Assembly: GCA_000004985.1 (NCBI GenBank)
Contig: GG738863.1
DNA length: 64,000 bases
Direction: 5' to 3' (one strand)
Source: Naegleria gruberi
Taxonomy: Eukaryota
Shown here: piece after piece, positions 12,054 to 51,009 of the stretch
How the letters are laid out: each line of letters starts with the position of its first letter
How positions within the stretch are numbered: position 1 is the first letter of the stretch
The notes under the pieces: model-generated
What the model was told of the DNA's origin: nothing
Database searches by the model: none
The model's input: the letters and a program-made list of their open reading frames with translations, nothing else
Made by a program: the position numbers and the translations under genes

Positions 12054-12103
12054 NNNNNNNNNNNNNNNNNNNNNNNNNNNNNNNNNNNNNNNNNNNNNNN
12101 NNN
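12054..12103. other. Assembly gap (50 N) inside or next to the Zn2Cys6 gene
   Basis: Run of n. Confidence 0.99.
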
Positions 12104-17876: not shown

Positions 17877-18231
17877 TCTTCTAGTTGATATAATAAACGT
17901 GTGTTGGAGAAGCAACCAAACAGACTGAAAGAGATCTGGAGTTGATGATGTTTTTTTGGTGAATGTTGACAGAATTTAAAACTAGACAGGAGGGAACTGC
18001 CCACATCACACCTCTCTTTCCAACAGTTGCTAATGTCTCATCTTTCGTGGGGCGTGTGGCAATAAAAGGATTGCACTTGTGTCAATAACTCTCAGCTTTC
18101 TCTGTTTGGTCAGTAAATGGTATTGATAATGACATTGCTCTGGCAATCTAGATGGAAAGAAGAGCTCTGTTGAGAAATGATAATAAATTAAAATTGTTTA
18201 TGATGAAAGGTTTAAATTAATTGCAAACCAT

Positions 18232-19115
18232 TTACTTTTCATAGACCCATTGGGCGTTGGCAAGTTCATAATTGGCAACTTCTTCAGGCTTGAACCAGAG
18301 GTTGATTTCATCTTTAGCAGTTTCAACAGAATCAGAACCATGGACACTATTTCTACCGACTGTTGTTGTTATAAATCAAGATGATGAATATGGATGAAAA
18401 TATATAATGATGGAGCAGAATAATATAGGTGATCCAATATTATTAAGAGCCGCAATGGTATCATATTGTATCATAGTAGAAATAATAATAGAATTAGAAA
18501 AACACAAAATGACAAGAAATATTACTTACCATCAACAGAGAGATCACCACGAATAGTTCCTGGTGGAGCAACAAGTGGATTGGTGGCACCAATCATGACA
18601 CGAGAATAGGAAATAACACCCTTACCCTCTATAGTTGAATAATATGATGAAGAAACAAATTCATACAAATCAACAAACAACAAATTGTGAGCATCGAAAA
18701 AGTGTTAATAACAAGATCGTTAGAACAAACAAAATATAATAAGAAAATACTAACCAGCAACAATACAGACGAGTGGAAGACCAGTCATGTAATCAACCAA
18801 ACCAGCAAAGAATGGTCTACCCTTCAAGTCATGGTAGTGAGCTTCAATTTGTTGACGAGTTGGAGTAACCATCTTCAAACCAACAATCTTGTAACCCTTC
18901 TTTTCGAGTCTGCCGAGAATTTCAGAAATGTTACCACGTTGAATAGCGTCATACTTGATAGCCATGAAGGTTCTTTCATGTCTAGTACCAGCAACACCTT
19001 GTGGTGGGAGACCTTCAGCAACCAATTGAGCCTTGTTTTGATTCTTGCCGTAGAGGGTAGCAGATACAAGGATAGCAGCACTAATAACACCGACCTTTCC
19101 AATTCTTGACAACAT
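18232..19115 (-). CDS. Nucleoside diphosphate kinase, three exons (19115-18755, 18628-18530, 18359-18232; introns 18754-18629 and 18529-18360), ~195 aa, with a hydrophobic N-terminal extension
   Basis: Exon 1: [14 protein letters not shown]…[14 protein letters not shown]. Exon 2: [33 protein letters not shown]. Exon 3: [23 protein letters not shown]…* (NDK active-site region). Donors GTTAGT/GTAAGT, acceptors AG, and the phases close the frame. Confidence 0.85.
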
Positions 19116-19311
19116 TTTTTTTCGAAAACAATTTTAATATTTTATTGTTGAATATAATTTTTAACGGTGCAAGTACACACCTAGAATCTTTCAGGACCTT
19201 ATTAGTAATTTCGCGAGTTTAATTTGCACTCCTGAAAACTACAGAGACAGTTGTTTTGCTTAATAGCAAAGGACGTTGAAAACTAAGGAATCAATGTTTC
19301 ACATTTGAATT

Positions 19312-20451
19312 TTACACTTTGGAATCATATTGATGAACATCTTGAGAGGTCAGAACAACTTGAGTTGGTTCTGGTGGTTGATAGACAACAACACCAGCCT
19401 CAGCAGAAAAGTAATTGCAAGCAACAGTTGGTTCTTGTGCCACTACTGTTGCAGTATTAGATGATAACGGTTGCATGGTTGGAGAATAGTATTGAACTGT
19501 GCTCATGGTTTGAATCTTTTGTGGTTCAATATAGGCAATAATTGGCACACCTCTTCTCCTTCTGTGAATTATTGATCCAATCACTACACATAGAGCCAAT
19601 AGTAAGCAAATGGCAAAGCTAGCCATCACAATACCAAAGATTGTCCCCAAGTAAGGTGCATCATCTTCCACATTGAACAGATTAATGACCAAACGACACA
19701 ATTCACTCTCCACACATTGAATATGAAGATAGAATGGAACATAGTGTTTCTCATCTAGTTCAGGTACGTCGTTTGGAACATCAATTTCCAACATCTTATA
19801 ATTCAATGAAGAGAGAGTGTAAGGAGTAAACTGAACTTGTTCAGTATTATTAAAGGCGAATCCAACATGAATTGTTTGTGAGCCTCCAATTTGTTGATTA
19901 ACATTTCCGCTCATCAATACTAGATTGTTGTGCTTTCCCTTACGAACTTGTTTTTGACTAAAGAACCTCTGAAATCCATAGGATGGGATGTAAACAGTTC
20001 TTTTTCCAATGTTCAATGTTTCAAATCCAATTGTCATTTCAAAATCAACTGTAAATTCTGTTGGTGCTGTGAATATTAAATAATCTCCTGATGATGAAGT
20101 TCCTGTAATGATAACAACCTTATCTGTCTCTCTTGATGAATATTTAATAATGCCATTGTAGACTACTGATGTGTTTGTATTCGTATCAGAGAAGGGAGAT
20201 GTTCCGACAGATATCGGCAAACTCGAATTAAAAGATAATGTATACATTCCAGCAAAGTACTTGTTAGATGAGGCGATTGCATATTGTGCTCGTACAATAG
20301 TTATAACTGAGGTAAATGGAAGAGATAAAATACAGATCAACACAATGATCATTAGATAGAGTACACTTTGTCGCTGATGCTTAAACAGCTGCGTTGATGA
20401 ATTAATGGTGGACAATCTCTGAAATAAAAACATTATTGATTGATAAGGCAT
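19312..20451 (-). CDS. Hypothetical type-I membrane protein (379 aa): signal/anchor, lumenal domain, one TM (IFGIVMASFAICLLLALCVVIGSII), basic cytoplasmic tail
   Basis: Uninterrupted ORF with an ATG at 20451. Hydrophobicity pattern read by eye. Confidence 0.5.
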   Translation of the reverse strand: MPYQSIMFLFQRLSTINSSTQLFKHQRQSVLYLMIIVLICILSLPFTSVITIVRAQYAIASSNKYFAGMYTLSFNSSLPISVGTSPFSDTNTNTSVVYNGIIKYSSRETDKVVIITGTSSSGDYLIFTAPTEFTVDFEMTIGFETLNIGKRTVYIPSYGFQRFFSQKQVRKGKHNNLVLMSGNVNQQIGGSQTIHVGFAFNNTEQVQFTPYTLSSLNYKMLEIDVPNDVPELDEKHYVPFYLHIQCVESELCRLVINLFNVEDDAPYLGTIFGIVMASFAICLLLALCVVIGSIIHRRRRGVPIIAYIEPQKIQTMSTVQYYSPTMQPLSSNTATVVAQEPTVACNYFSAEAGVVVYQPPEPTQVVLTSQDVHQYDSKV

Positions 20452-20612
20452 TTTTTTTTATAGTTGTTAAGGTTTTGTTTTTGTTCGTAACAGCAGCAGT
20501 AATGCAACTAATTGACTTTTCGTTTTTGGTGGCGCAGTTTTAAATATGCAATCAGAGAATCTTCAAAATTCTCTCTGAATTTATAATATTCAAGATAAAA
20601 ATATGATTTTAT

Positions 20613-23600
20613 TTACTTTGAAAAGTAAGGATCTTTGAGGATATCCTTGGCACTTGGTCTTGATGATGAATCTTTGGTGAGCATTTTCAAACAGATGGAA
20701 ATGAGTTCTTCTGAATAATTAGAAGTTTGTTTCATCTTGTCGTGGAGAATTTCACAAACTTGTTTTTCATCCTTTGAGAGGTACATGTGACTGATGGCTG
20801 TTGTGTTATCCTTTGTCATGAGTTGGTAGATTGTTACTCCCAAACTCCAAATATCAGTATTGGAATTATAACTAGCTCCCAATCCAAGTTCAGGACTCAT
20901 GTCTTTAGAAGAATGGTTAAATATCTTACAATGAAATTGAAAAAACTTACAAAGTGGAGTTCCTGCATATGATTGCATAGCTGATGCATGATTGTCCTTT
21001 GCAAGACCAAAATCAGCAAGAATAGTATGAATACTTGTATCATCAATACTCTTAATGAAAATATTGGACAATTTAACATCACGATGGATGGCCTTCAAAT
21101 TGGAGTGAACAAAATCCAAAGCACTACACATTTGATACACTATTTGTTTGACAATGACTTCACCACAGAAAGGAGTTTCAGGTTTGATGAATGCAGATAA
21201 ATCTCCCTTCTCATAAAATTCCATATCCATGCAGAGAATTTCCTGCTTGTCCACAAATAAATCATTCACTTTCAGAATATTTGGATGACTGATATTCATC
21301 AATTGCATTCCTTCTTTCATGATTGCGTTCAACTCTCCAAAGCTTTTAAATTTAATAATTTTCAGAGCTTTGGTCTTGTTTGTTTTGGTGTCAAATGCTT
21401 TTTTTGAAATATTAGAAACTAATCAAATAATAATACAAACCTTTGAAGACACTTCCAAATGCTCCTTGTCCAATCTTGGTTAATTCTTTGTATCTAGAGA
21501 GAGGATCAAATGTTGCTTCACTATTTGTAACAGAAGACATGCTACTGCTGAGAGGTCTGAAAAAGCTGTCATCTGTTGGGAAATCAGAAATTTGATCAAA
21601 AGTGCTGGCATTAGCATCCTTCATTTCAAAGTTTTGACGAGATTTCACAACAGAATTGGTTACAGTTGATCCTTGTTTCTTGAGTTTCATATAAGCAATC
21701 ACAAATGCAACAATTACAACTATCAAAATTGTAATGAACAGCACAACTAACACAGGTACAAGAACTGCAATAAGAACGATTTGTCCATTATTGCTATCCA
21801 CTCTTCCACCACTAGTACTTGTTGAATTCAAAGTTACTGGAGTTGAAATTAAACATTGAGAACCACTCCATGTAGAAGAACATTGACAAGTATCTGGAGC
21901 AATACAGCTTCCTTGAAGTGGGCCACCACATGAACTCGATCCAACAGCTCCATAACAAATTGGTGTACATGTTGTAATGTTCAAAGAATATCCACTATCA
22001 CAATATGGTGTTAGTTTGTAAATATTTCTCCTTTCAGAAACGTAGAGCTCTCCATTTTCTCCATAAATAATACGAGAGGGATCAGCAGAAAGGACTATTG
22101 TTGTTGATAAATTAAAAAATAAAAGAGGAATAACCACTTACATGGCAGTGTAATGTTTGTGAAAGTACCACCAGTTTGGAAACGAGAAACTCCCAAACTT
22201 CCTCCCACAAAAATAGTTCCATCAGAAGCAATGGCTAAACCAGTTTTTTTAACAGTTCCTATTATTTCATTATGTAAGATTAATCTATTATTTGGAAATA
22301 CTAACCGAGGTAATTAATGGAAGTTGAGGTTATAGTTTTGAGATAGTAACTGGTATCGTCCAAGAAATAAATTCGCTTATCAAGAGGTGAAACTGTCATG
22401 GCATTGGCGAAAACTGGTGAATCAAGAGGGACTGATGGAGATGTTTTACTAACACTTTGTGAGCCTCCAGCAACTGTGGTCACCATTCTCGTCGAAAATG
22501 AAATCTTTCTAATCTTTGCAGTGGCCAAATCAAAATAGTACAAATATTCGTTATCAACTGCTATTCTATAACAATTCATAGTAGTATTGAGTGCAGGAAT
22601 ATTTTCTGCAAAGTTGGAACTACTGGACGATCCGGCAAATATTGAAATGGATTTGTTTGAGGGATCAATCATACGGATACTTTGAAAAGAAGAAGAATAA
22701 ATAATGCCATTCTTAATTACAAAGTCTGAAGGAATAAGAGCAATTCGTTCGTAGGAATCAGGATTTTCGGTGGCAATACTATAAGATCCAATTACTCTTT
22801 CTATCTTTCCATCTGTTTTGATTTTGTAAATAATGTTAAAAACTGTAAAATATAATTCAGAATTCCAAAAGTACATGGTATTTCCAAAGGTATCTACTTT
22901 CATCTTGGTGGCTAATGTTTTATCTTGATTAACAATATAATTACCAACATTTCTCAGTGCTGAAAAAGCTGAATCTCCAGCTTTGAAAGTATTAATTTCA
23001 TATTCAAAAGTATTAGCAACAAATATATCAGTTCCATTATCTGAATATCCAATTGCTTGTGGATTTGCGAAATCATTGGCAGAATTAATTAGATTATCTG
23101 ATAGATCTTTTGTTGTGTCATATTGAAAAACGTTAGTACCAAAGGTTACCAGTAAATAGTTATTAAAAGTGGCCACTGCAGTAATTTTGTTGGTTAAAGT
23201 TAAATAAGTACTAGTTGAGTTATCAGCTAATGTGAGCATGATTCTTTTGTTTTCGCTATCTGCAGTGAAAACTCTACCATCGAATGATACTGAAACTGAG
23301 TGAGGATGCCAAAGTTGCTGATTATTTTTACCTGGTCGATTACCAACTCCAATAAGAGTCTCAATAAAACCATTTGAATTGATTCTTCTCATTTTGTTAT
23401 TAAAAGTATCTGCAATATAGACAATATCTGTCATTGTTTGATTATCGTACCAAACACTCACACCAAGAGGGTTGTTCAATTTTGCACTTGTTGCCAAAAT
23501 ATTATCTCCATTATATCCAGGACTTCCTGTTCCAGCAATTGTTGTAATAATATTGGTAATTGGATCAATTCGTCTAATTCTATGATTGTATGTATCAGCA

Positions 23601-24991
23601 ATGTAAATTGCTTTGGTTCCACTTGAAAAAGCAACAGCAGTTGGGTTATTGAATTGAGTATTTGAATCTAAAACAAGGCCATCTCCTGCAAATCCTGCTT
23701 CTCCTTTACCGAATGAATATACTTGTGAATTCTTAATTTGTAATATTGAGTGAGTCAAACTTTGTGTTAAATAGAGTACATTCTGAACTTTTGTTACTCC
23801 ATAAGTTTTGGTCAATCTAATACTGAAAGGATCAGAGTTAAAAGATGGTTCAAAAGGAGATCCACAAAATCTTGAAATTGTACCAGTTTGAGAAAGCAAA
23901 CTAATTCTATCAGCCCTACTCTCGAGAATGTACCACTCTTCAGTGAATGGATTTCTCATAATTGAACGCGGTTCATATAATTGAGCTTGAGTTGCTTGAA
24001 TACTAATATTATCACTGGTGCCACCACCTGCAATTGTAGTTACCATTCCACTCAATGTGTCATATTTTCTAATTCTATTGTTACCAGTATCCGCAATGTA
24101 CAACTCAGTTTCCAATTTGTTCATCCAGAGTTTAGTTGGATTATTCAAAGTGGTTGAAAGTCCACTTGAATCAGAATCAAACCCAATATTTACAGTACCA
24201 ACTAGAGTTACAATAGTTCCGTTTGTCAAAATCTTTCGTATTCTGTTATTTCCGGAATCTGAAACAAAAATTTCACCACTCGATTGTGAAACATAGATTC
24301 CTTGAGGATAACTAAAAGAAGCATTCAAAGCAAGAATTCCATCTCCATAGAATGTATTGTTAGTATTTACATTTCCTGCTATTGTAGTAATAACATTAGT
24401 ATTGGTATCAATCTTTCGAATAACATGATTTCCGCTATCACACACATAAAGACACTCATCAAATGCTGAATAGAAAAGACCTGTAGGATTATTCAATAGA
24501 GCACTCTTTGCCAATGAATTATCTCCTGAGAAACCTGCCGTATCTGATCCAGCCACAAAAATCGAAGGGGAAAGAAAATCGATATTAGTGGCGTAAACAC
24601 CATTTCCAAAAGTATAGTAAATAAAATAGTCATTACCTGCAATTCCTTTGTATTCATAGTTGCCATTATCATTTTGGAAGATGGATATCTTTCCATCTGT
24701 CAATGACACCTTTCGAACAGCACGGCGATAATGGTCAGTGAAATAAAGACTATTCTTCTGCGATGAAAAGAACATATCGTACGGATACGCCAGAGTGGCA
24801 TCAATAGCCTCACCTCCATTTCCAAATTCATCAGAATATCCAGCAAAATTCGAAACTGTATATCTAGCAAACTTTGTTTCCGCACCACCAACCACTTCAA
24901 CAACAACAATGGCAACACACGACAATAACAGTACCAATAAAAGAACTGCACTACGTTGGCCAAAGAAAACCGCCCGGCAGTTGTTGTCCAT
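20613..24991 (-). CDS. Receptor-like protein kinase with an NHL-repeat (six-bladed beta-propeller type) ectodomain, an EGF-like Cys module, one TM and a cytoplasmic Ser/Thr-Tyr kinase domain. Four exons: 24991-22306, 22258-22142, 22094-21441, 21397-20613. Introns 22305-22259, 22141-22095, 21440-21398 (47, 47, 43 nt). ~1413 aa
   Basis: Signal peptide MDNNCRAVFFGQRSAVLLLVLLLSCVAIVVV. Repeated …ADTGNNRIRKY…, …SDSGNNRIRKI…, …ADTYNHRIRRI… NHL motifs. CTPICYGAVGSSSCGGPLQGSCIAPDTCQC. TM LIAVLVPVLVVLFITILIVVIV. Kinase GQGAFGSV|…K, HRDVKLSNIF, DFGLA, and HPNIL after the intron. Junction phases were checked by hand. Confidence 0.8.
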
Positions 24992-27579: not shown

Positions 27580-28795
27580 ATGTCAAAACGCTTGAAAAAA
27601 ATGCGTCCCTATCTCAAGCATTTGTATTCCTCATCACCCAAGAAATCATCTTCAAATAACAAATCAGAAAAGATTAATACACCTTCGAATAGTTTATCCA
27701 TAGTTTCGTCTAAAAAAACTTCGTCACCCAAGAAGGTTGTTATTATTGCTGAATCAGAAACGGAGAAGGAGGAGCACAAATCAAATATCGATAGGGCAAG
27801 TGATCATAAACTCATCAAACCTTCATCATTTAGAATTAAAAAGGGAATTATTCAAGATTCGAATAGAGATGATTTCCTACGAATTCATTTCGACAAGTTT
27901 CGAGAAGGTAAATTAATTTTAATTCTCAATCATTCATTCATCAAATATTGAAACAGTTCAACCTGAAGGAGAAACAAAATCATCCAATGAAACTTTATCC
28001 GAAACTTCCTTAACCAGAACAAAGAGTTCTCCAAATATGGAGAAATCAAAAACTCAACAAAAAACCGAAACAAAACGAAACCACCATCACAATCAACATC
28101 GAAATTCACTTTCCCACCAAAAAACAATTCGTCCGCTCCAACCACAAGATGAAGATAAATTAGATCTTCCATCATGTATAATGAATTCTCTATATTTGGG
28201 AGATTGTTTCCAAGCAACTAATAAGAAATCAATTGACCATTTGAAAATTACACACATTGTTAATTGTACAAAGAATGTTGAAAACAAATTTGAAAGAAAT
28301 CATGAAATTTCAGATCATTCCAAATTGGAACATGTTCAAAGTATTGATTTGGACGTTTCTGAAATTAATTTAGAAGATGAATGTGTTAAAAATATGGAAA
28401 ATGTTAAATTAAAAGATAATAGACAAGTGAAATATTTGAGAATTCCAATTGAAGATGTACATACTGAGGATATTTATCAATATTTTCAAGAGGCACATAA
28501 TTTTATTGAAGAGGCAATGTTTGAATGTGGAATTGTACTTGTACATTGTGCTGCTGGAGTTTCTAGAAGTTCTACTATTGTAATTTCACATGTTATGAAA
28601 AAGATGGGCCTTTCTTTCATGTTTGCTTTCAATATGGTGAAGAGAAGAAGGAGAATGATCATGCCAAATGAAGGATTTTTCAATCAATTATTGGAATGGG
28701 AAAGAAAACTAAATGGTGGTAAATCAATTTCTCAATTTAAAGATGGATACATGGATTTATTGGAAATTGAACAGCAAATGTATAGTTCCTACTAA
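27580..28795 (+). CDS. Dual-specificity protein phosphatase, two exons (27580-27907, 27957-28795; intron 27908-27956, 49 nt), ~388 aa
   Basis: Catalytic loop VHCAAGVSRSSTIV (HCx5R[ST]). S-rich N-terminal exon. GTAAAT…ACAG intron, and the phases close. Confidence 0.8.
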
Positions 28796-30135: not shown

Positions 30136-31425
30136 ATGCAATTCATCAAGAGCCTTCAACGAACTAATTCCTTCAAAACAAATAATGCACAAGAATGGTC
30201 CAAGAAGGAGCTTGAGCTCTTCTTTCGATCTATCGGATTAGAATTATTCACTTCTAAAATATTTTCCAAGCAAAATCCTTTATTTTCATCAGTTGAAAAT
30301 GGTGAAATGTTCTTGACAGCTGTCAATAATATATTTAATAATACTGATACAATGTTACAAGAGAAGAGTTCTTGTATTGACTTGTATGATCCATATGCAA
30401 AATTAGATACAAAATCACTTTCTTTTTTAGTGTCAAGTGTCAGCCATTTAATTGATGACTTGGATATTGGATTGTATAAAGTTCATGAATTGGAAGGGTT
30501 AATTGGAGCATTTTTACATATTTCTATTGATAATCAATCATATAGATCATCAAATAATTCTAAAGCAACTAAACCAAGTGCTAAATTCGATTCCATTCCA
30601 ACACATCCATTAATTAAACAAAGATTGAATCAATTAAACTTGTATTTAAAGATTCAAAAGACATATTTCCAAGAATTATCAGAAAAGAATGAAAATCAAG
30701 GAAAAGAAATTGACATTTCTCATTCAGGTGAAGAAGAAAATGATTTTTACAATTTTCAACAAAATTTTGTATTGGACCATTTCATTGCTTTACAATATTT
30801 CAGATTTGATCAGAATTCTGTACAGAAAAATAAGGTAGCCAATCAAATGAGTAGTTCAAGTGAATCAGGATTAGTGGAAGATCAACAATTTTTAACAGAA
30901 GGTGTGAAATTTGGTCATTTACGTAAACTTTCCATTCAATTGAATAATTTGAAAAATAATGTGAATCATTATGATGAAAATTTCACAACTCATGAAAAGA
31001 ATAAGGGTTCCAAATCATTGTTCTTTGCCTCTTCAGGTGATAAGGGATTTTTCGTTTCACAAAGTATTGAAAGTGTTGAAGCAGCATTTATTGGAAATGG
31101 AGTTGATTGTCGATTGCTGACAACTCATCAAGTGATGGAATATTTGAGATATAGAAGAATTATGAAAAAATCATCACTCTTACAAATTATTGATTTGAAT
31201 GAAATTGATGGTCAAGTTTTTGTTACAATGAGAGATCCAATGGAATGGAAAGTTTTACTGTATCCATACAGGAATGAGATACCAGGCGCCAAGAATGGAA
31301 GTGTCTATGAATGTATTTGTACTTTGGCAAATGCATTGGCAAATATTGTAAAGGCAATTTGTAAGAATAATTTCAAATTGGGTGAAAATAAGGAAGCAAG
31401 GGAATTGAAACAACTTGAACTGTAA
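30136..31425 (+). CDS. Hypothetical protein with an N-terminal SAM-like domain (~429 aa from the first ATG)
   Basis: WSKKELELFFRSIGLELFTSKIF…ENGEMFLTA is SAM-like. The track ORF begins earlier at a GTG (29989). Remainder unrecognised. Confidence 0.4.
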   Translation: MQFIKSLQRTNSFKTNNAQEWSKKELELFFRSIGLELFTSKIFSKQNPLFSSVENGEMFLTAVNNIFNNTDTMLQEKSSCIDLYDPYAKLDTKSLSFLVSSVSHLIDDLDIGLYKVHELEGLIGAFLHISIDNQSYRSSNNSKATKPSAKFDSIPTHPLIKQRLNQLNLYLKIQKTYFQELSEKNENQGKEIDISHSGEEENDFYNFQQNFVLDHFIALQYFRFDQNSVQKNKVANQMSSSSESGLVEDQQFLTEGVKFGHLRKLSIQLNNLKNNVNHYDENFTTHEKNKGSKSLFFASSGDKGFFVSQSIESVEAAFIGNGVDCRLLTTHQVMEYLRYRRIMKKSSLLQIIDLNEIDGQVFVTMRDPMEWKVLLYPYRNEIPGAKNGSVYECICTLANALANIVKAICKNNFKLGENKEARELKQLEL

Positions 31426-31558
31426 TAAAATCATAATCAAATAATTAAATATTTACAATTTTTATTTTGAAATATTTACAAAGAATTTGAAACCTAGTTC
31501 AATATCTATAAAAAATTCAAAAGTGGGAAGCTAATTCGATATATTAAAATCAACAAAA

Positions 31559-32998
31559 TCACCATCCAAATTCAATCTTTTTCTGTCTCTTCTCAATCCA
31601 TTCCAAAATTCTATTCATCGTATTCTCGAAACAAACTTCAAACAGTAAATCATGATAAAGACCTGAACAAATTTCAATTTCCTTATCTTGAACAAGTGTT
31701 GTCTTCTCCATGAGGAGATTGGCACCTGATGGATCACAATATTCATCCTCTGATCCTTGTAAAACTAGAAATGGTGTTCCAATTTTGGAAATATCTTGAT
31801 CTTTGAATTGTTTGGTCATTTCAAGAATTTGGAAACAACATTTTGCTTTGAGTTTTTCCTTAATGGTGAGTGGATCCTTCTTGAAATTCTCAATTTCTTC
31901 CTGACTATGAGTTCTCTTTTGTAATTTCAATTCCATGACAGACATGTTTGGCAGACAAGCGGCAATTCCTTTTGCAATTCTAGAAATTTAATGAATTTCT
32001 AAACATTTCATATGAAAAATTACTTACTTTTGGAGGAAGGCATGTAATTCTGATGGAACTGTAACCATAGGAGCACTCAGAACCATTCCATTAATAAATG
32101 CAGGTCTTTCAATGGACATGTACATGGCCACAGTAGCTCCAATTCCTTGTCCAAAGAGGAATATTGGTTTTCTTGGATTATGTTGACTTGTAGAGGTACT
32201 ATTCTTTCCATGTTGAGCAAATCCATCATAACTTTCAACATCTGATTGTCTGGCAATATCCAGATTAGGTAAAAGTGGTTGAGCTGATGGAAAATGATCA
32301 ACTTCCACCAAACCAGATATAATTTCCATTATAGATTTCATTTTAGAAGGTGAATATATCTGATCCACAACTGTTTCCATATTTCCACTTGATTTTGACT
32401 TTCTTTTTAAACCAGAAGTCAAACTTTTTCTATTTTTGGAAATATTCAACTCTGTTTCTGAAGAAAATGATAAAGACAATATTTCTTTACCTTCCTTATC
32501 ACAAGTATTCAAATGTAGAGTTCCATTTGCAATCAAATCCAAAAACTGAATTCCATTTTGTAACCACATTGTAAAGTCGTCAATAAATGCTGGTTTTCCA
32601 TCTGATTTTCCATGACCTTCCATATCGAATGAAAACACAGCAAAATGCCTCGATAATAACTCATTAGTAAGTGTTGAATATCTGCCAGCTTTTTGTAAAC
32701 TTGTTTGAAAAATTTACAATTTGTTTTTTAACTTACAATGCTCGTTGAGTCCGTGACAAATAATTACAACACCACGAATCTTTAAATCTGATGGACACCA
32801 TACTTGATAATGGATTCTACTAGATGGTATTTTAGATTTGATGGATTTCGAACTGGTTGAACTGTCAGTTGTCGAAGAATTTGATGGATCATTAGATGAC
32901 ACATCCCTGTTCACATTTTGATAGTTGCATTGGAAATAACCTGCTTGTTGGAAGGATGAAACGTTGAACGATCCGAATGATGAAAAGCTTCTTAACAT
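31559..32998 (-). CDS. Monoacylglycerol-lipase/lysophospholipase-like alpha/beta-hydrolase homologue LACKING the nucleophile serine (likely pseudoenzyme). Three exons: 32998-32737, 32688-32028, 31979-31559. Introns 32736-32689 and 32027-31980 (48 nt each). ~447 aa
   Basis: VVIICHGLNEH|SGRY (MGLL HGxGEHSGRY). The nucleophile elbow reads LFGQGIGATVAMYM, where the family has GHSMGG; the DNA is ggacaaggaattgga at 32138-32152 (- strand). The catalytic Asp and His contexts are kept (LVLQGSEDEYCDPSGA; GLYHDLLFE). A large S/K-rich insertion lies before the elbow. Confidence 0.75.
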
Positions 32999-34123
32999 TT
33001 TTTTTTAAAATGGTTTTGGCAGGTGACTTTGAAAGGTCAATAACAGTTCCGTCGTTTTTTTAAATATGATCAATCTATCTCTTCAGTTTTTGTAATTGTG
33101 GTCAGCATGCAACATTCTTATAATCAACATGTTTCGGTTAGAATACCTCTTATTTGATTATTAGAAACAAAACTAAACATTTATTTTGAACCATTTTTAC
33201 ACCTTTTGTAAAGGGTATTTCAGTCTGTTTAAATTCTCCTCACTTCTCAGTCCTATCTTCATCTCAGTTTATCCCGAAATATGAAACGATGAGTTTCACA
33301 AAGTTTCCAATATCTGCACGGGTGTGGACGAATCCTTTCCTCACCAAACCTCTTATAAACTCCTTCAGTTGACCATTGGTATGTTTCAATTTCAAATAAT
33401 ATTCGATATTCAGGAACCAAAAGTTAAAAATACGAAACAACTTAAACTTTACAATGCATCAATTCTTAGAATTAAATGTAGCAATCACACGGCAACTAAA
33501 AAAAGAATTGGAGAAGGCAAAACTGCAGTTAAGGATCATGAATGGTGATTGCTGGAAAAACGGCCTGAAGTGATCTCTGTAGTTTTTTATCAAACACACA
33601 TATTTACTGCTTCACAAATGATAGAATGTATTCTTAAGTTTAATGTCGTTCCATTCAATATTGAATCAGTTTTTGAAAAATAGTATATAGCTTGTCGATA
33701 GGAGTATGGGAACTATTCGAAATTATTAGTTTTGTAAAATGTTTGGAAAAAGTGCAAAGTTATCTCCTTTCAATTTCGAACTTTCAAGACCTCACAATCT
33801 CATTGACATCAATGTTTCACTGAATCTCTACTGACCTTTCGAATAAACATTAAATATATTATTTAATACAATACATTAAAATTCCACAATCCAACAAATA
33901 AACTGTAAATCGATTCCCACTCAATTCAAATGAGATACGCAATCTTAAAGTGAACCTTATCGTTGTATTCACTTTACAGTTTCCTTCTAGGTTGTGAAAA
34001 TTGAAAGCTGACGTTGAAGACTGACACGAAGAAAGACACAACAACAAAAACGAGAAAACCGCAAAACAACAAGCGCTTCATCCTTTTAAAAAAAATAATC
34101 TACATCCTATTATCAACTGCCAA

Positions 34124-36299: not shown

Positions 36300-38084
36300 T
36301 TAATGTCTAATATTACAATGAGTCAATATTTTGAGAAACACTTCTTTTGGTACATTTTCAAAGGTCTGTAAATCCTTTTCCATTACTTTTAGAGCAATTT
36401 CAATATCAGTCAACAGTTCATGTGATAAATGAGATAACCTAGTCCCATCTTTAACATATTGTAAATATTGTAAAACCACTTGCTTATCCCTTTGCAATTC
36501 ATAAGAGGCATGTAAAAAACATTCTGTATGTTTTTGGATAGCTGTCATTACAAAATCTCTATCAGCCTTCAATGCAAAAGATGCACTTTTAAATGCATTT
36601 CCATTTTGCTCAATTGCTTGTAAAACAATTTCCTTATCATTTCTCAATTCCTCTGAGGCAAATTCAAGTGCCAATCCATCTTGGTTAACAGCAACTGTTA
36701 CAATTTCCTCATCATTTCTCAATCGCTCAGAAGCGTGTTTGAGTAGAGTTCCTGCTTGACCAACAGCTAGTAACATTAATTCCTTATCATTTTTCTTGTC
36801 CTTACTCGCTTTTCGAAGAGATCCTGTTTTTAATTTGAAAGCTGTCATTAGCAATTCCCTGTCATCTTGTAAATTGAGAGAAGCATAATCAATAGGTTGC
36901 TTACTCCATCGCACAGATCTCGTGTTAATGGCTTGTAAAACTATTTCACGATCATTTCTGAGTTTGGATGATGCGTATTTAAGCGAAATTCCATTTTGAT
37001 TTATGGCAGATAAAACTATCTCCTTATTGTTTTGCAATTCCTTCGAAGCATATTCAAGAGCTAATCCATTTTGACACACAGCTTGTAAGACAATTTTCTT
37101 ATTCTTTTGGAACTCATATGACAAATATTTGAGAGATAGTCCATATAGCTTACAAGCTTGCATTACAATCTCCATATCATTCAATGACCGAGGAGATAAA
37201 TAGAAAACATATCCCTCCCAATTAAGAGCTTTCAAAATTAATTGCTTATCATTCCTCAATTCTTCAGAAGCATATCTTAATGCACCTTCACTTTGATTAA
37301 CAGCTTTCCAAACAAGTTCCCTGTCATTTTTCAATGAATAATTTAAATATTCTGGTTTGTGTCCTTCCTGTAAAATGGCCATCGAAATAACATTATTAGA
37401 AGCAAATCTAATTGCCTCTCCATTTTGTGAAATAGCTCTCAAAACAATACTCTTATCTCTCCTCAACTCTTCACTTGCAAATTCAAGTGCCAATCCATTT
37501 TGTTCAATTGCAATGTCTACAATTGTCTTTTCATTTTGTAATTCTTTATCCGCAAACGCGAGCGCTAATCCATTTTGAGAAAGAGCTTGCCTTACAACTT
37601 CCATATCTTTTTGTAATTCTTTGGAGGTATGGTTGAGAGCTAGCCCATTTTGCTTACAGGCACATATTGCAATTTCCTTATCATTTTTCAAGTCTTCACT
37701 TGCAAGTTGGAGTAATAATCCATTTCGAATAACAGATTGGTTGACTATTTGTTTATCATTTGTAAAATCTTTGAATCTCTTCAAAACATTTATATCATAA
37801 TCCAAAACCCGCAACACAAACGACTTTACAGACCAAAAATTCAGCTTATCTGCAATATACATTCCATTTGATTTTTGTAAATATTCAACAATATATTTAG
37901 CATCTCTCCAATTTATGAATAATTGATCTTTAAGTAATAAATGGGAAAGGATTGGAAAGAAAATTGTTTTAAATTTTAGAGAAGTGGGAACATCTCGGAT
38001 TTGAGTGGTGAGGAGAAGTGATGAATAATTACAATCTAAAATGATTGTGGTGAGTTGACCTCTCATGTTCTCCAAGTTTTCCAT
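36300..38084 (-). CDS. DUF4116-repeat protein (594 aa)
   Basis: At least 12 tandem ~28-aa units of the form L+NDKEIVLxAVxQNGLALEFASEELRxD. Confidence 0.7.
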   Translation of the reverse strand: MENLENMRGQLTTIILDCNYSSLLLTTQIRDVPTSLKFKTIFFPILSHLLLKDQLFINWRDAKYIVEYLQKSNGMYIADKLNFWSVKSFVLRVLDYDINVLKRFKDFTNDKQIVNQSVIRNGLLLQLASEDLKNDKEIAICACKQNGLALNHTSKELQKDMEVVRQALSQNGLALAFADKELQNEKTIVDIAIEQNGLALEFASEELRRDKSIVLRAISQNGEAIRFASNNVISMAILQEGHKPEYLNYSLKNDRELVWKAVNQSEGALRYASEELRNDKQLILKALNWEGYVFYLSPRSLNDMEIVMQACKLYGLSLKYLSYEFQKNKKIVLQAVCQNGLALEYASKELQNNKEIVLSAINQNGISLKYASSKLRNDREIVLQAINTRSVRWSKQPIDYASLNLQDDRELLMTAFKLKTGSLRKASKDKKNDKELMLLAVGQAGTLLKHASERLRNDEEIVTVAVNQDGLALEFASEELRNDKEIVLQAIEQNGNAFKSASFALKADRDFVMTAIQKHTECFLHASYELQRDKQVVLQYLQYVKDGTRLSHLSHELLTDIEIALKVMEKDLQTFENVPKEVFLKILTHCNIRH

Positions 38085-39171: not shown

Positions 39172-40395
39172 TTAATCATTAAAATTAAGTGCCTTGTGAC
39201 ACATTTTGTGCATGGTCACAACAAGTAATTTCAAATTATAAAGCAATGGTTTGCTAAATTCAGAACTGTACAAATCAAACAAGAACATGCATAATAAGGC
39301 ACATTCCAGAGTACTGGTACGATCCTTCTCTGTTTGTTTTCTGAGTAAATTAAAGATTGGTTCCTTTTGTTGATAGAGATGCACAACTTTGGATTGATCG
39401 AATTTAAGTCTATTAGGGAGATCCTTCTTGTTGCAGAGAGCTTTGAGAACATGCTTGGCTTGTTGCCAAGTACTATCCACAATAATGAGATTAATACTTT
39501 TCATTGGTCGCTTATTGGTGGTTGAGTAGTTCTCTTGGTCTTTCCACATTTCTTTTGATAGGTCCATTTGCTTTTGTTTAATTTGTTCCACAAGTGTTTG
39601 ATCCAAATCGAGAGCATCTTCACTTGGGAAGAGCAAGTAGGTCAACTCTTGTCCATAATATTTCTCCTTAAATTCAATTTCATGAGCTTCTACATCCACT
39701 AGATAAATTTCCACAAATCCCTTTGGTAATGTATCCATCAAAATCTTTCCAGTGTTTGATTTTCTGAAAAATTCCTTGGCATGCATTAGTAGAATAATCT
39801 TTAAACGTGGCTCGTCTGATTGTAATTCAGATGGCTTCTCACAATGTTCACGAACAGAGTTCAATTCCTCGGAAGGTTCTGAAACAAATGTGTCCAAATG
39901 CTTATTCTCTCTCCAAGGGAAAACCATTTGTTTACAAATGCAATAATCAATATTTAACCAACAATATGGACAACAACGAATTGGTGATTGTTTAAATATT
40001 TCATCAATTAAAAAGTAGGCCATTCTTCTCTGAACCGTATAGTATTGTTTCTCCTTGTGTTTTTCCTTTTCGGAGAGTCCAACTCCTTCCTTCTGTGCCT
40101 TCCTAATCATTTCATGATCTTGCTCTGATTTTGGTGTTGGCACTGGAGTCTTGTCTTTTAATTCCTTCAACTGTGGGAAATATTTTGACATGACTCTAAA
40201 CAAGTCATGCTCCCAAAAGTGACAATAATGTGGATTGTGTGGAATACTGAGATGGTGAGTATCATAGAGAGTTTCAAGTTTTGGTTTTTTAGCTTCGGAA
40301 TTTTCAACATGTTGTTGCTGTTCGGAATCATTTGTTGTTGGACTTGCTGAACAACTATGAGATGAAGATGTTTCCTCTGTTGCTTGTCTTTTCAT
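39172..40395 (-). CDS. DTW-domain protein (DTWD/TapT-like, putative tRNA acp3U transferase family), 407 aa
   Basis: Cys cluster CCPYCWLNIDYCICK (C..C…C.C) and IIVDSTWQQAK (the D-[ST]-W signature). Confidence 0.6.
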   Translation of the reverse strand: MKRQATEETSSSHSCSASPTTNDSEQQQHVENSEAKKPKLETLYDTHHLSIPHNPHYCHFWEHDLFRVMSKYFPQLKELKDKTPVPTPKSEQDHEMIRKAQKEGVGLSEKEKHKEKQYYTVQRRMAYFLIDEIFKQSPIRCCPYCWLNIDYCICKQMVFPWRENKHLDTFVSEPSEELNSVREHCEKPSELQSDEPRLKIILLMHAKEFFRKSNTGKILMDTLPKGFVEIYLVDVEAHEIEFKEKYYGQELTYLLFPSEDALDLDQTLVEQIKQKQMDLSKEMWKDQENYSTTNKRPMKSINLIIVDSTWQQAKHVLKALCNKKDLPNRLKFDQSKVVHLYQQKEPIFNLLRKQTEKDRTSTLECALLCMFLFDLYSSEFSKPLLYNLKLLVVTMHKMCHKALNFND

Positions 40396-46277: not shown

Positions 46278-49038
46278 TTACAATTTCATAAAGTGTTTAC
46301 CTGTGACTGGACAAACGTTCATGTTTTTAGCACAAATATAATGTGTAACGACACCATTAGGATAACAAACAAAGGCACTCATACCTAATTTCTTATTGCA
46401 CACTGCACAAGTTCTATCTGGTTTAACCTTTACAACTCTCTTTCTTTCCTTAATGACTTCTTCGTGAACTTGGAGATTCTCAGATCGATTGATATTTTTC
46501 ATAATTTGAGCACGTCTCTTTTGTTCCGTATGGCACCTCAGAGTTGCTTCAAAGTACTTCATCAAATCAGATATTGGAACATTTTCTGGGAGCAATTTAA
46601 TTGCCTTGATCAAGTCAATCTTTGAAAAGTGACGTTCCAATAATCCAATAGCATCTTCAAAGAATAAATTGTTTTCTGTACTGGCACTTTGCTTTAAAAT
46701 CATATTGAGAAGAATGATAAATATTTCCCTACTTTCTTCACTTCCATCTGGATTATAGTGTTGCTCGCAATATTTCTCAGCCTTATCCATACTTTCCAAT
46801 TTGGTAACATAGATAGTCAGAGCTTGGGAGTGTCTATTAATCTTACTCAACAAAATAGCTCTCTCTTCGTACAGGGAATCGAATGGGAATCTCGAAAGCA
46901 TCTTTTCAGAGTGGTAAAAAGTAGAGTGGGTCAAAAAGTCGTTCATTCTACGCTTGACATCCTTAACTGGTTGAAGGAGTCCAGGAATACTATCTTCCTC
47001 ATAGTTGGATGCTGATGTTGAGTATTTGGTCACATATTCCAAATAGTACAATAAAAGTTGATTGTGAAGGTTTGGATCCACAGATTTTTCAACCTTAATC
47101 AAGTGTTCCAAATAGGCAATCTTCATGGCCAGAGCATGATCAAACAAATCCAAGTGAGATAAAATTTCATTTACACTAATTGGACAATTTGGTACTTGGA
47201 AAATCTTTAAACCACGAAGTGGCTCAGCACTGAGTACCCACTTTGAGAATTCTAAAATGTACTGTTGTCCTTCTCCAACCTGTTGTAATTCCTTCAAATA
47301 GTTAATAGTTGGCATGACACCAATCAAGTCGGTGTAAATAGATGTTGCTGATGACTTGTCTCCCAATAATTTCAACAATTCAAGAGCTCTATCGTGCAAC
47401 CCTTTGGTCTTGTAGAAGAGAACCAACTCTCTAAACTTTTGATGGGAGTGGAGGGTCTTTTGACTGTCCATAATGTTACAATGATTTGGTTGGGTGATAA
47501 AATCTTCAACGTGAGGGTCATTAGTGTATAAAAGTGCCTTCAATAATGCTGTATCAACTGCCTCAGCTTCATCTAGAGCTTGCTCATTCAAATCCTTTTC
47601 TGTTGTTCTTCTGTGAAGCAAGTATTGAATCAGGGCTTGAAGGGCCTTATTTCTTTGTTCAATATCCTTTAAAAAGTGATCAATCTTTCGTTGCTCTTCA
47701 GAAGTGTAAGGGAGGGAGAATTTAAATGAAGATTTTGGTGGTAACAAATCAGGGAAGAGTGAAATAATCATACGTGGATCATCTTTAGTCTTATCAAAAT
47801 GTTCCATTGCCTTGTCAAATTCACCTTTGGCAAACAAGTGAAAACCAAATTGTGTGTGAATGGAACTAACTCTCCAATCTTCAATCTTATATCTGGTATT
47901 CTCTACAGTATTACAGAGATGGAGAGCCAATTCAAATTGTTGATTGGATAAGAGTTCTCCAGCTTGCAAATCAAATTGTTTCATTACCATAACATAGATG
48001 GAACTCTTTGAAGCGAGGAAAATTCTATTTTCTGGATCAATGGTGTCATCTCTGTCGAGTTCATTTCTTACCTTGAATCCAACACCCATACCATGATCCA
48101 TATTTTCTGGATGATCCAAATCAATGAAATTCTGTTGACTTGTTGTAATGATATCCTTGAGTGGAAGACTCTGAATGAAAGTATCCTTTTTCACAGTGGT
48201 ACTCAAAATTCTAACCTCAACAAAAACAGAGAGTGGTGCAATGAGGTATGGTTTCAAATAGCCAATCATGTTTGGAGCTTCACTCCATCCAATACCATGT
48301 GATCGTGAAGGTTTACCAGAAAAGTTGATGGTCACACCAATTCCATTCAAAACCACAATAGTTTCATTGGGAAGTGATAATCCAAGAGTATTTTGTTGTG
48401 AAACACCTGTATCGAAAAGTTTTTGTGGCATGGCAGATGGCTTTAATACATCAATTAATGAATATTCCTTTTTGAAACCAACACAGAGCTTGTCGCCACT
48501 CCAATTCAAAGATTTGGCAGCATCTGGCAGAACCAATTCCTGTTGATATTTAAATTTAGATTCCTTACTACCATATTCAAAGATTGAAATCTTTTTCTTT
48601 GATGCAACTGCCATTGTAAATTCACCATTGTGCTTTTTCAGAGCAAAAAACATGCATCCCTTCAATTGATTTTGCTATCAATTTAATTACACTCAAAATA
48701 TTCCAAATTATTCTTACCTTTAAATTCTTGAGTGTATCAATTTCACTCAACATTCCGAGAGTATATACTTTAATAAATCCATCTGTCAAACAAATCAACA
48801 TTCCCAATTCTGGAACTGAGCACATTTGAGTGATTGGCTTTTTGCTAAATTGTTTCTTTTGACTGTCCAGAGCACAAGTAAACTTTTCCTTGTTTGCCTT
48901 TTTATCATATCGAATATTGTAAAGGGATAAGGTACCATCAGTGGTGGCCACAAAAAGAGTATTGCACCACACACACAATGATTCTACCTTTCCCAATCCA
49001 TCCAATAATTGGAAATATTCAAAGGCTGTATGTCCCAT
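46278..49038 (-). CDS. Vam6/Vps39/TRAP1-like tethering-complex subunit (CNH domain + helical repeats + C-terminal zinc-binding tail). Two exons: 49038-48718 and 48674-46278. Intron 48717-48675 (43 nt; alternative acceptor at 48660), ~905 aa
   Basis: N-terminal MGHTAFEYFQLLDGLGKVESLCVWCNTLFVATTDGTLSLY (CNH-like). C-terminal CAVCNKKLGMSAFVCYPNGVVTHYICAKN. Donor GTAAGA; the 43-nt choice matches the local intron size. Confidence 0.7.
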
Positions 49039-49929: not shown

Positions 49930-51009
49930 ATGCTGTCAGATTCTAATTCCTTCATGATGGAAGATCAACAAATGCCTCCTTCTTCGTCATCTTCTTCTGC
50001 TTCTTCTTCCCCTGCTCCTTCCTCTCCACTTTCACCTCATCATACAGCAACTTTTGAAACAAACATGCTTGATGAATATGGAAGCAGTATCAATCACCCT
50101 TCTAAGCCACTTAACACAACAAATACAGCAACAACAACACTAAATAATGCATCCAACAATAATATAGAACACATGAGATCAGCTGGCAATGATGATTCTT
50201 TACCACCTATTGCTTCCATACCACCAAACAATTCAACTTCTCGTGTTGTTAATGTTGGGCCAATTATGAATGCAATTCAAGCTTATAGTGGTAATAATGG
50301 TAATAGTACACTTGTTGATAATGTAAATGTCAGAATATCCTCCGCCTCATCTTCATGTTCAACCATTTCAGATCATTCTATGAATAATACAATGATTAAT
50401 GGACAAGCACCAAAACCACTTAATGATTTTGAAAATGTATTTGCTAGTTTCAAGAAGAGAAATAGAGAACAATACGAAAATAATAATCAATCCTCGTCAT
50501 CATCTGATCCAGTTTCATATATTAGAGATTTGGAAGATAAAATTGATTTTATGGCACAATTAGTCACTATTCAATCTGCCAAAATGAGAAAGATGGAAAT
50601 GAGATTGAAAAAATTGGAAAACTTACTTCCTCAATCAGGGGATGAATTTGTAAATTCAGGCAATCTTCATCGTATGCCACATAGTGATGAGTTATCATCA
50701 ATTAGTGATGATATACCAACATTTTCAGCACCAAAGAAGGAAAAGGGTAATAGACAACCTAATGCCTATAATATTTTCATGAAGGGAGAAATTCAACGTA
50801 TTCGAACAACTCACACAGAATTAACACAAAAACAGGCATTTAAACTTGCTGCCAATAATTGGACTTTGAAGAAATCTGAAATCCTTGGAGCTTCAAATGG
50901 TTCACAGAAAAAACCAGACGACAGAACTAGCACAGTAAGCACACCTAGTGATACTACCATGGCAGATTCACTTTCTGAAACACCACTCAATCAACTTGAC
51001 GAAAAGTAA
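49930..51009 (+). CDS. HMG-box-like / YABBY-like DNA-binding domain protein (359 aa) with a coiled-coil and an S/N-rich N-terminus
   Basis: PKKEKGNRQPNAYNIFMKGEIQRIRTTHTELTQKQAFKLAANNW aligns by eye with the YABBY consensus PSAYNRFIKEEIQRIKA.NPDISHREAFS.AAKNW and with HMG boxes. Coiled-coil IRDLEDKIDFMAQLVTIQSAKMRKMEMRLKKLENLL. Confidence 0.55.
   Translation: MLSDSNSFMMEDQQMPPSSSSSSASSSPAPSSPLSPHHTATFETNMLDEYGSSINHPSKPLNTTNTATTTLNNASNNNIEHMRSAGNDDSLPPIASIPPNNSTSRVVNVGPIMNAIQAYSGNNGNSTLVDNVNVRISSASSSCSTISDHSMNNTMINGQAPKPLNDFENVFASFKKRNREQYENNNQSSSSSDPVSYIRDLEDKIDFMAQLVTIQSAKMRKMEMRLKKLENLLPQSGDEFVNSGNLHRMPHSDELSSISDDIPTFSAPKKEKGNRQPNAYNIFMKGEIQRIRTTHTELTQKQAFKLAANNWTLKKSEILGASNGSQKKPDDRTSTVSTPSDTTMADSLSETPLNQLDEK

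Follow-up and report, generated by a model that had tools for sequence, protein, structure and literature searches.

A monoacylglycerol lipase-like protein of Naegleria gruberi with glycine at the catalytic serine position, a candidate pseudoenzyme

Introduction

What does a monoacylglycerol lipase (MGLL)-like protein do when glycine stands where the catalytic serine should be? The question is raised by a gene within a 64,000-nucleotide stretch of Naegleria gruberi contig GG738863.1 (the window, to which all positions refer), which the original prediction described as coding for an MGLL-like hydrolase and candidate pseudoenzyme. Lipids are reportedly the preferred energy substrate of Naegleria (PMC6205838), and in N. 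fowleri fatty-acid oxidation is under study as a possible drug target (PMC7526813); an MGLL-derived regulator or unusual enzyme, if that is what the gene codes for, could therefore be relevant to lipid metabolism in the amoeba. Literature searches gave no account of any lineage descended from monoacylglycerol lipase that lacks the serine, and searches pairing Naegleria with monoacylglycerol lipase or lysophospholipase, or pseudoenzymes with lipase, returned nothing on the N. gruberi protein.

Results

Gene structure and family membership

The gene codes for a 447-aa MGLL-like alpha/beta-hydrolase-fold protein in three exons separated by two GT-AG introns of 48 nt, and the spliced frame runs uninterrupted to a TGA codon (Table 1), in agreement with the exon structure first proposed. 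The motifs HGLNEHSGRY, LQGSEDEYCD, and GLYHDLL that had been picked out in the DNA are all present in the product. Exon 2 is 99% identical to a metagenome protein (P0210), and the positions of both introns, the first with its donor after HG.NEH, are common to Willaertia magna and to a second Naegleria-like organism represented by contig L005. Protein searches returned no N. gruberi model for this gene, although they did return that of a neighboring paralogue, and the gene may be absent from the N. gruberi annotation in the protein collection searched.

Table 1. Features of the serine-less MGLL-like gene, in window coordinates
Feature	Position	Strand	Description
Whole gene	31559..32998	(-)	Spliced in-frame model; ATG at 32998, TGA at 31561-31559
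Exon 1	32737..32998	(-)	Low-complexity N-terminus, strands beta1-3, and HGLNEH (32738-32755) of the HG/oxyanion motif
Intron 1	32689..32736	(-)	48 nt, GTAAGT...AG, phase 1; unchanged in independent strain contig L006
Exon 2	32028..32688	(-)	Helix A to strand 6, including insertion and nucleophile elbow; unbroken ORF
Insertion	32177..32524	(-)	aa 143-258, between helix B and strand 5; S/L/K-rich, lineage-variable
Nucleophile elbow GQGIG	32138..32152	(-)	aa 267-271; Gly269 codon GGA
Intron 2	31980..32027	(-)	48 nt, GTAAGT...AG, phase 2, after ...FLQK
Cap/lid region	31805..32062	(-)	aa 297-366, with intron 2 inside
Exon 3	31559..31979	(-)	Most of cap, strands 7-8, acid and His loops, C-terminal helix, stop codon
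DEYC	31736..31747	(-)	Catalytic acid Asp386 and Cys389 (human MGLL Asp239 and Cys242)
His417	31652..31654	(-)	Within GLYHDLL; human MGLL His269

The likeness to MGLL and lysophospholipases along the length of the protein, previously judged by eye, is borne out by profile searches, with a Pfam Hydrolase_4 (PF12146) match of 181.2 bits against a cut-off of 27 (E = 2.6e-53) and human MGLL as the closest solved relative (phmmer, 4e-36). A custom hidden Markov model (HMM) of 178 serine-bearing relatives matches in two domains scoring 83.6 and 166.1 bits. Structure was modeled on the Willaertia orthologue (P0001) rather than on the N. gruberi protein itself, giving an AlphaFold2 model with pLDDT of 85 and pTM of 0.85 that is predicted to retain the alpha/beta-hydrolase core and an MGL-type cap; the fold is intact in the orthologue model. 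The top 26 Foldseek matches to this model are all monoacylglycerol lipases, the first being human MGLL (3hju; TM, 0.88; rmsd, 2.5 Å), and its Gly183 is placed between a strand (177-182) and a helix (184-195).

Glycine at the nucleophile elbow

The elbow DNA reads GGACAAGGAATTGGA on the minus strand and is translated as GQGIG, such that relative to GHSMG Gln268 replaces His, Gly269 replaces the catalytic Ser, and Ile270 replaces Met. Three independent alignments agree on this register: phmmer sets FLFGQGIG opposite FLLGHSMG of human MGLL, so that Gly269 corresponds to Ser122; the nucleophile column of a MAFFT alignment is Ser in 141 of 148 other relatives; and the HMM built solely from the serine-bearing relatives aligns its kpiFllGHSmGG to KPIFLFGQGIGA with top posterior confidence. 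The profiles could have placed the nucleophile elsewhere and overturned the claim, but they put it exactly on Gly269. The nucleophilic Ser of the family's G-x-S-x-G motif is therefore missing from the strand-5/helix-C elbow; with Gly in its place no acyl-enzyme can form there, and the protein has lost the means to act as a serine hydrolase. The phmmer alignment with human MGLL also provides the equivalences of Asp386, Cys389, and His417 in Table 1; the other two triad residues are thus retained, as had been read from the sequence, along with the HG oxyanion motif (H82-G83, human H49-G50).

The same appearance might arise if a Ser codon had been lost to sequencing or assembly error, if the exon model were wrong, or if the gene were a recent pseudogene, and a skeptic could point to the missing N. 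gruberi protein model and to several assembly gaps in the window. The independent metagenome contig L006, from a strain 97.5% identical, has the same five elbow codons, and the GQGIG elbow recurs in W. magna and L005, in which the 15 bases differ from N. gruberi only at the last, synonymous one (the first four codons are the same and the fifth is GGT instead of GGA). Both intron positions are kept in the three species. The 447-codon frame is intact, and there are 12 codon differences from L006 in the coding sequence, 11 synonymous and one nonsynonymous, with no indels, whereas the flanks of the gene differ by 3.5 to 6.7% and do contain indels. The ratio omega is ~0.02 (binomial P = 6e-8 against neutrality), a pattern that points to strong purifying selection. 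The L006 codons, the orthologous elbows, and this pattern of selection rule out all three of these alternatives, and we give an artifact or a dying gene almost no credence.

A serine-less clade

A neighbor-joining (NJ) tree groups the N. gruberi protein with those of the second Naegleria-like organism and W. magna and six more distant sequences, with bootstrap support of 80% that falls to 64% when the elbow columns are omitted; the monophyly of this clade rests on that tree and its support is moderate. The nucleophile column reads Gly or Ala in all nine members, and the serine loss, being common to all of them, appears to be old. The clade contigs look eukaryotic wherever gene context was seen, and the serine-less MGLL lineage spans genera of heterolobosean amoebae together with further eukaryotic-looking contigs. 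A metagenome scan with a trimmed clade alignment gave no new members, recovering a known contig and an unrelated serine-bearing bacterial protein with HDLLHEVC.

The former active site is altered around the missing serine. The clade has an Asn or His, both bulkier, beside the oxyanion-hole residue, Asp for Glu after the catalytic His, and clade-specific residues at His303, Arg330, and Cys424. Among the three close orthologues the DEYCD and GLYHDLLFE flanks are identical. The Asp386 position is Asp in all nine members and the His417 position is His in eight (compared with 147 of the 148 other relatives aligned), and this degree of conservation, seen in an alignment, would fit a His/Asp dyad that is still used and a structural role equally well. 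The HG Gly is present in 148/148 of the other relatives, but is changed in two of the distant clade members, to HE in L004, which also has Asn (codon AAT) for His, and to HS in P0062; the other catalytic elements thus appear to be partly relaxed in these two.

[quoted passage not shown] In the cofactor-independent dioxygenases of this fold the elbow Ser is not an essential catalytic residue, and in the close orthologues here Asp, His, and their flanks are kept and the surroundings are remodeled and not degraded. However, there is no similarity to such enzymes beyond the common fold, in both sequence and structure the leading matches are all MGLLs, and the losses of His in L004 and of HG in L004 and P0062 also count against it; we consider this chemistry improbable.

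Cys389 raises a second catalytic option, which we also think unlikely, if slightly less so. This position is Cys in 9/9 clade members and in 21/148 of the other relatives aligned, and human MGLL Cys242 is described as lying near the catalytic Ser122 and is targeted by covalent thiol-directed inhibitors. Cys389 could thus in principle be a substitute nucleophile, judging from the alignment with Cys242, activated by His417-Asp386 in the space freed by the change of Ser to Gly, and the product would be a thiol esterase, a thioesterase, or an acyltransferase. A bacterial Hydrolase_4 protein with GQCIG (P0021) suggests that a thiol nucleophile can occur in the family, although there at the canonical position. 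The Cys is also present in ordinary serine-bearing MGLLs, including those of human and Ciona, and so may be inherited and not newly recruited, and it is kept in the clade member that lacks His and in the two that lack the HG oxyanion motif. To our knowledge, moreover, no established mechanism in the alpha/beta-hydrolase fold moves the nucleophile away from the elbow.

Insertion, cap, and genomic context

The large insertion noted in the original prediction is real, and its 116 residues are most often S (20), L (11), and K (10). It has no counterpart in the canonical profile, whose first HMM domain match stops at aa 141 and whose second begins at aa 249, and is placed on what we take to be the face of the fold opposite the active site. 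The insertion differs in length among lineages, having about 40 aa in Willaertia and more residues in L005 than in N. gruberi, and its identity across the three species is 3%; relative to L006, the frame is open with six synonymous codon changes and one nonsynonymous. The insertion is probably a disordered, fast-evolving appendage and is unlikely to carry a conserved new function, because it is lineage-variable and poorly conserved. The cap behaves differently. It is the best-conserved segment in the three Naegleria/Willaertia orthologues, with 53% three-way identity compared with 33 to 43% in the core segments, whereas in serine-bearing relatives conservation is lowest there (27%, compared with 34 to 38%).

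Gene order is not informative in N. gruberi. We found no conserved synteny among N. gruberi, L005, and Willaertia, and the neighbors therefore provide no functional hint. A patatin gene is located ~7 kb from the Willaertia orthologue, and none is present among the N. gruberi window ORFs scanned.

A second MGLL-like gene had been proposed at 51262-52783 as a comparator. Its family assignment has marginal support, with a Hydrolase_4 match of 28.9 bits (cut-off, 27), but most of the interval is an 817-base run of N (51281-52097) and the readable part is a 226-aa C-terminal ORF (52103-52783). The ORF is 26% identical to the serine-less gene over 93 residues, its N-terminal half, nucleophile region included, falls inside the run of N and so precludes a comparison of the elbows, and its sole database match is the N. 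gruberi model itself.

Discussion

We favor the interpretation that this gene codes for a conserved, selected MGLL-fold pseudoenzyme that acts without hydrolysis through an unusually conserved cap, and put the probability of this at roughly 60%. A residue essential to the chemistry of the family has been replaced (Ser to Gly), the loss is kept among orthologues (GQGIG in L006, L005, and W. magna), and the intact frame is under purifying selection; the original prediction of a pseudoenzyme carried the expectation that the Gly would be conserved and the gene selected, and both are found. We envisage that the old serine loss came with coordinated remodeling of the former active site, including the His-to-Gln and Met-to-Ile changes at the elbow, the Asn or His by the oxyanion residue, the Asp after the catalytic His, and the appearance of His303, Arg330, and Cys424. 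The MGLL lipid-binding tunnel and lid would be retained, with action that is presumably nonhydrolytic, and the cap may bind either a partner protein or a ligand resembling a monoacylglycerol or a lysolipid. We infer the lack of any catalysis, the binding of a ligand or partner, and the role of the cap from these patterns of loss and conservation.

A broader and considerably more speculative proposal is that the clade, comprising at least Naegleria and Willaertia, is a group of eukaryotic serine-less MGLL-fold proteins that is functional at the old site, either as a Cys389-His/Asp enzyme or by regulating lipolysis in the role of a lipid sensor or co-activator. We would not expect this to hold, although its prospects seem somewhat better than those of the thiol enzyme considered by itself.

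The pseudoenzyme interpretation can be set against several known systems. Human and other metazoan MGLLs (PDB 3HJU and 3PE6) share with the N. gruberi protein the core and cap, the HG..EHSGRY, D.xGHG.S, and DPL cap motifs, the positions of the catalytic Asp and His, and the Cys at the Cys242 equivalent. They differ in having GHSMG, the N. gruberi GQGIG having lost the nucleophile, in lacking the extra ~110 aa before strand 5, and in having a cap that is variable in the MGLL family but conserved in the N. gruberi orthologues. The residue after the oxyanion Ala/Leu is Gly or Ala in MGLL and Asn or His in the clade, the residue after the His is Glu in MGLL and Asp in the clade, and the residues at His303, Arg330, and Cys424 are those of the serine-less clade and not of MGLL.

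The bacterial GQCIG protein P0021 resembles the N. gruberi protein in the Gln before and the Ile after the nucleophile position and in its D.EGHG and DDE..DP-like motifs, but its own residue at the nucleophile position is Cys, and the protein is presumably a functional thiol hydrolase. Its gene context is bacterial, it lacks the insertion, and the NJ tree places it outside the serine-less clade. Neuroligins and thyroglobulin also lack the active-site serine, in neuroligins through replacement of Ser by Gly, and their cholinesterase-like domains are similarly alpha/beta-hydrolase folds that serve as binding or scaffold modules. These are, however, extracellular metazoan proteins of the carboxylesterase/cholinesterase family and are unrelated in sequence beyond the fold.

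The closest functional analogy is with ABHD5 (CGI-58), a co-activator of PNPLA lipases and a pseudoenzyme derived from the phospholipase ABHD4 by inactivation of the catalytic serine, in this case by substitution of Ser with Asn. Like the serine-less protein, ABHD5 is a paralogue of a lipid hydrolase that has lost its serine and kept its fold, with a noncatalytic role in lipid metabolism of the type that we propose here. The two arise on different branches, ABHD5 from ABHD4, whereas for the N. gruberi protein the leading hits in Pfam, in the PDB, and by fold all belong to MGLL/Hydrolase_4 and give no indication of descent from the ABHD4/ABHD5 branch; the analogy with ABHD5 is therefore one of function only.

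Gene structure and position of the missing nucleophile

The N. gruberi gene splices in frame as the three-exon model of the original prediction had it, and each of the motifs named there (HGLNEHSGRY, LQGSEDEYCD, and GLYHDLL) is found in the translation. The replacement of Ser by Gly at the elbow is likewise confirmed: minus-strand DNA at 32138-32152 is GGACAAGGAATTGGA, encoding Gly-Gln-Gly-Ile-Gly (aa 267-271). No N. gruberi model of this gene is among the protein-search matches, though these do include a metagenome fragment with 99% identity and, separately, the N. gruberi model of the second MGLL-like gene; the gene may be absent from the annotation or from the protein collection searched. 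We note that aa 1-31 (32906-32998), and 41 residues of the orthologue on the Naegleria-like metagenome contig L005 (649-771), are without acidic residues, and that both N-termini are high in Ser, Arg, Lys, and Phe and resemble mitochondrial presequences, a feature that the Willaertia orthologue lacks.

Features of the gene and its neighbors in the window
Feature	Position	Strand	Details
Whole gene	ATG 32998 to TGA 31561-31559	minus	in-frame spliced 447-aa protein
Exon 1	32998-32737	minus	spliced model
Intron 1	32736-32689	minus	48 nt, GTAAGT...AG
Exon 2	32688-32028	minus	spliced model
Intron 2	32027-31980	minus	48 nt, GTAAGT...AG
Exon 3	31979-31559	minus	spliced model
Insertion	32177-32524 (aa ~143-258)	minus	~110 residues extra vs canonical profile, between helix B and strand 5
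RasGEF	14247-17915		neighbor
NHL-repeat protein	22301-24991		neighbor
Dual-specificity phosphatase	28037-28795		neighbor
DUF4116 protein	36300-38084	minus	594 aa, 13 repeats, 6.4e-151
DTW-domain protein	39172-40395		neighbor
Vps39 homologue	46278-48665		neighbor

The protein matches Pfam Hydrolase_4 (PF12146; 2.6e-53, 181 bits, cut-off 27), and its closest relatives of solved structure are human monoglyceride lipase chains (~4e-36). HMMER sets FLFGQGIGATVAM opposite FLLGHSMGGAIAI in the human chain and pairs human Ser122, Asp239, Cys242, and His269 (chain numbering) with Gly269, Asp386, Cys389, and His417; the human MGLL catalytic triad is Ser122-Asp239-His269 (PMC7161712). In a MAFFT alignment that took in the best 150 library representatives, 148 sequences lie outside the Ser-less clade described below, and 141 of them have Ser in the Gly269 column. 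A hidden Markov model made from 178 Ser-bearing relatives only, so that fitting to this protein is excluded, places 'kpiFllGHSmGG' on 'KPIFLFGQGIGA' with maximal posterior confidence. All three methods agree on Gly269, and the objection that profile alignment might put the nucleophile elsewhere thus fails.

An independent strain argues against error or decay. A 199-aa fragment from the profile search (P0210) is 99% identical to exon 2, and its contig (L006), from an unrelated ENA metagenome assembly, matches 30695-33706 with 97.5% nucleotide identity and carries the identical elbow DNA, so a miscalled Ser codon finds no support. The coding sequences (1344 nt) are separated by 13 base differences, spread over 12 codons, and by no indels; 11 of these codons changed synonymously, and the one non-synonymous change is G248E, within the insertion. 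Neither intron differs; divergence is 3.5% in the 5' flank and 6.7% in the 3' intergenic spacer, with indels in both. With 79% of sites taken as non-synonymous, omega is ~0.02 (binomial p = 6e-8 against neutrality). Given the identical elbow, the intact frame, and the 11:1 ratio, we can effectively exclude both an artefact and a recent pseudogene.

A clade of relatives without the serine

Among named database matches the top one, P0001, is a 366-aa hypothetical protein of Willaertia magna and reads IYLFGQGIGGL; its gene has two introns at the N. gruberi positions, after HG.NEH and after ..FLQK. The third orthologue, on L005 (4 kb, 39.5% GC), keeps the three-exon structure and reads LFLFGQGIGG. 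GQGIG is thus conserved in both relatives, and the 15 bases of the elbow are the same in all three species but for a synonymous difference at the final one, where N. gruberi has GGA and the others have GGT.

An exhaustive phmmer search with P0001, covering 1.84 billion cluster representatives, gave 6768 relatives, the nearest of which have no Ser: their elbows are GQGIG (P0058, P0061, and P0070), GQGMG (P0064), GMGIG (P0062), and GDAIG (P0059). In a neighbor-joining tree these six cluster with the three orthologues, and the resulting nine-member group has no Ser-bearing sequence inside. Bootstrap values suggest moderate support for this group (159/200, or 128/200 without the elbow columns), and the Naegleria and Willaertia trio is recovered in 180 to 184 of 200 replicates. 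Gene context is informative for two clade members, which appear to lie on eukaryotic contigs, one (L004) with a RhoGEF/myosin-TH1 gene and introns and the other (L009) with a CENP-T histone-fold gene, G6PD, and a PQ-loop gene. No additional member came from a scan of JGI metagenome contigs. The clade gene on L004 (~5600-7000 of 73.6 kb) has an intron splitting its C-terminus that was misread by a prokaryotic gene caller. Outside the clade in the neighbor-joining tree, a bacterial Hydrolase_4 protein (P0021; L002 8001-8894, also L003) reads GQCIG, sharing the unusual Gln and Ile neighbors but with Cys where the amoebae have Gly; its gene context is dense and bacterial, adjoining a beta-lactamase-like gene.

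Fold, active site, and cap

The Willaertia orthologue stands in for the N. gruberi protein in an AF2 model made with a 56-sequence alignment (mean pLDDT 85.2, pTM 0.85). Gly183, in the GQGIG that starts at residue 181, is flanked by strand 177-182 and helix 184-195 (block pLDDT 97), and in the model this site is a canonical nucleophile elbow; Asp299 and His330 follow strands 291-296 and 320-325. All 26 top Foldseek matches in the PDB are monoacylglycerol lipases, the best being human 3hju (target-normalised TM 0.88, rmsd 2.5 A).

Active-site residues (N. gruberi numbering) in the Ser-less clade and in aligned sequences outside it
Position	Ser-less clade (n=9)	Others (n=148)
85, adjoining oxyanion-hole residue	Asn or His, 6/6 covering position	mostly Gly or Ala
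268, preceding nucleophile	7 Gln, 1 Asp, 1 Met	His 131/148
269, nucleophile	8 Gly, 1 Ala	Ser 141/148
270, following nucleophile	8 Ile, 1 Met	Met 104/148
His303	8/9	6/148
Arg330	7/9	2/148
Asp386, catalytic acid	9/9	148/148
Cys389	9/9	21/148
His417, catalytic His	8/9	147/148
418, following His	Asp 9/9	Glu 123/148
Cys424	8/9	4/148

Position 84 aligns with human Ala51, an oxyanion-hole residue (PMC8468992). The sole clade exception at His417 is L004, with an AAT codon (Asn; YNDLL), and the HG oxyanion motif, whose Gly is present in all 148 outside sequences, is altered to HE in L004 and HS in P0062. The remaining catalytic machinery is therefore fully kept in Naegleria and Willaertia, with some relaxation in distant clade members. 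This pattern bears on two ways in which catalysis might persist, with Cys389, activated by His417 and Asp386, as a substitute nucleophile, or with the His/Asp dyad as general base for another reaction. DEYCD and GLYHDLLFE are tightly conserved in close orthologues, as either would have it, but distant members have lost the His and HG; we regard the Cys389 route as unlikely and the dyad route as somewhat more so. Human Cys242 is described as near the catalytic Ser and is a target of thiol-directed inhibitors, and since Cys is also found there in ordinary MGLLs (human and Ciona, for example), Cys389 may simply be inherited.

The large gained insertion of the original prediction is genuinely coding: its frame is open and most of the changes in it are synonymous. 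Every clade member has extra residues at this site, but their length and sequence vary widely (~40 aa in Willaertia, longer in L005 than in N. gruberi), three-way identity among the orthologues is 3%, and the Willaertia model has two lower-confidence helices there (pLDDT 60-72). The insertion thus looks a poor candidate for carrying a conserved function. In the three orthologues no segment is better conserved than the cap (aa 297-366), with 53% three-way identity versus 33 to 43% in core segments; in Ser-bearing relatives it is the least conserved (27% mean pairwise identity versus 34 to 38%), and within the Ser-less clade it equals the core at 37%. Because the MGL cap forms the lipid entry and binding tunnel and is conserved in the orthologues, selection appears to be focused on it.

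Genomic surroundings

Neighboring genes offer no synteny or functional clue across the N. gruberi window, L005, and Willaertia. A patatin-domain (PNPLA-like) gene ~7 kb from the Willaertia orthologue (18739-20498 of its locus, L001) is suggestive given the ABHD5-PNPLA analogy, but is probably a coincidence, as a scan of ORFs in the N. gruberi window turned up no patatin domain.

The second MGLL-like gene proposed at 51262-52783 stands only in part. Its readable C-terminal ORF (52103-52783; 226 aa) has a marginal Hydrolase_4 match (28.9 bits), retains Asp (GESD) and His (KHDVFHE), and is 100% identical to a 180-aa NCBI 'predicted protein [Naegleria gruberi]', but most of the interval is an 817-base N run (51281-52097) that takes in the N-terminal half with the nucleophile elbow; its identity to the Ser-less protein is 26%, over 93 residues only. 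Other assembly gaps lie at 1129-2450, 12054-12103, and 57770-58364. A 359-aa S/N-rich ORF (49930-51009, plus strand) clearly matches the YABBY C-terminal domain (PF04690; 9.4e-13, 48.8 bits, cut-off 28.6), which is unexpected in a heterolobosean amoeba because YABBY is a DNA-binding domain usually assigned to the plant lineage.

Interpretation and comparison with known pseudoenzymes

The simplest reading, to which we give a probability of roughly 60%, is an ancient, selected pseudoenzyme, in which the MGL scaffold and lid would be retained, serine chemistry lost, and function exerted through binding of a lipid or partner. The conserved, purifying-selected Ser-less clade strengthens the original proposal of a candidate pseudoenzyme. 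What is new here is that the elbow change marks a conserved clade under purifying selection, in Naegleria, Willaertia, and eukaryote-like contigs, and that the conserved part, as judged from the alignments, is the cap and remodelled active-site shell, not the insertion. A role as a lipid-related regulator is plausible since lipids are reported to be the preferred substrate of N. gruberi (PMC6205838), although this proves nothing. Alpha/beta-hydrolase pseudoenzymes are already known as a kind, and the Ser-less MGL clade would be a variant of them. The closest analogies are ABHD5, a pseudoenzyme derived from the phospholipase ABHD4 through inactivation of the catalytic serine, and the neuroligins and thyroglobulin, in which the active-site serine is likewise missing.
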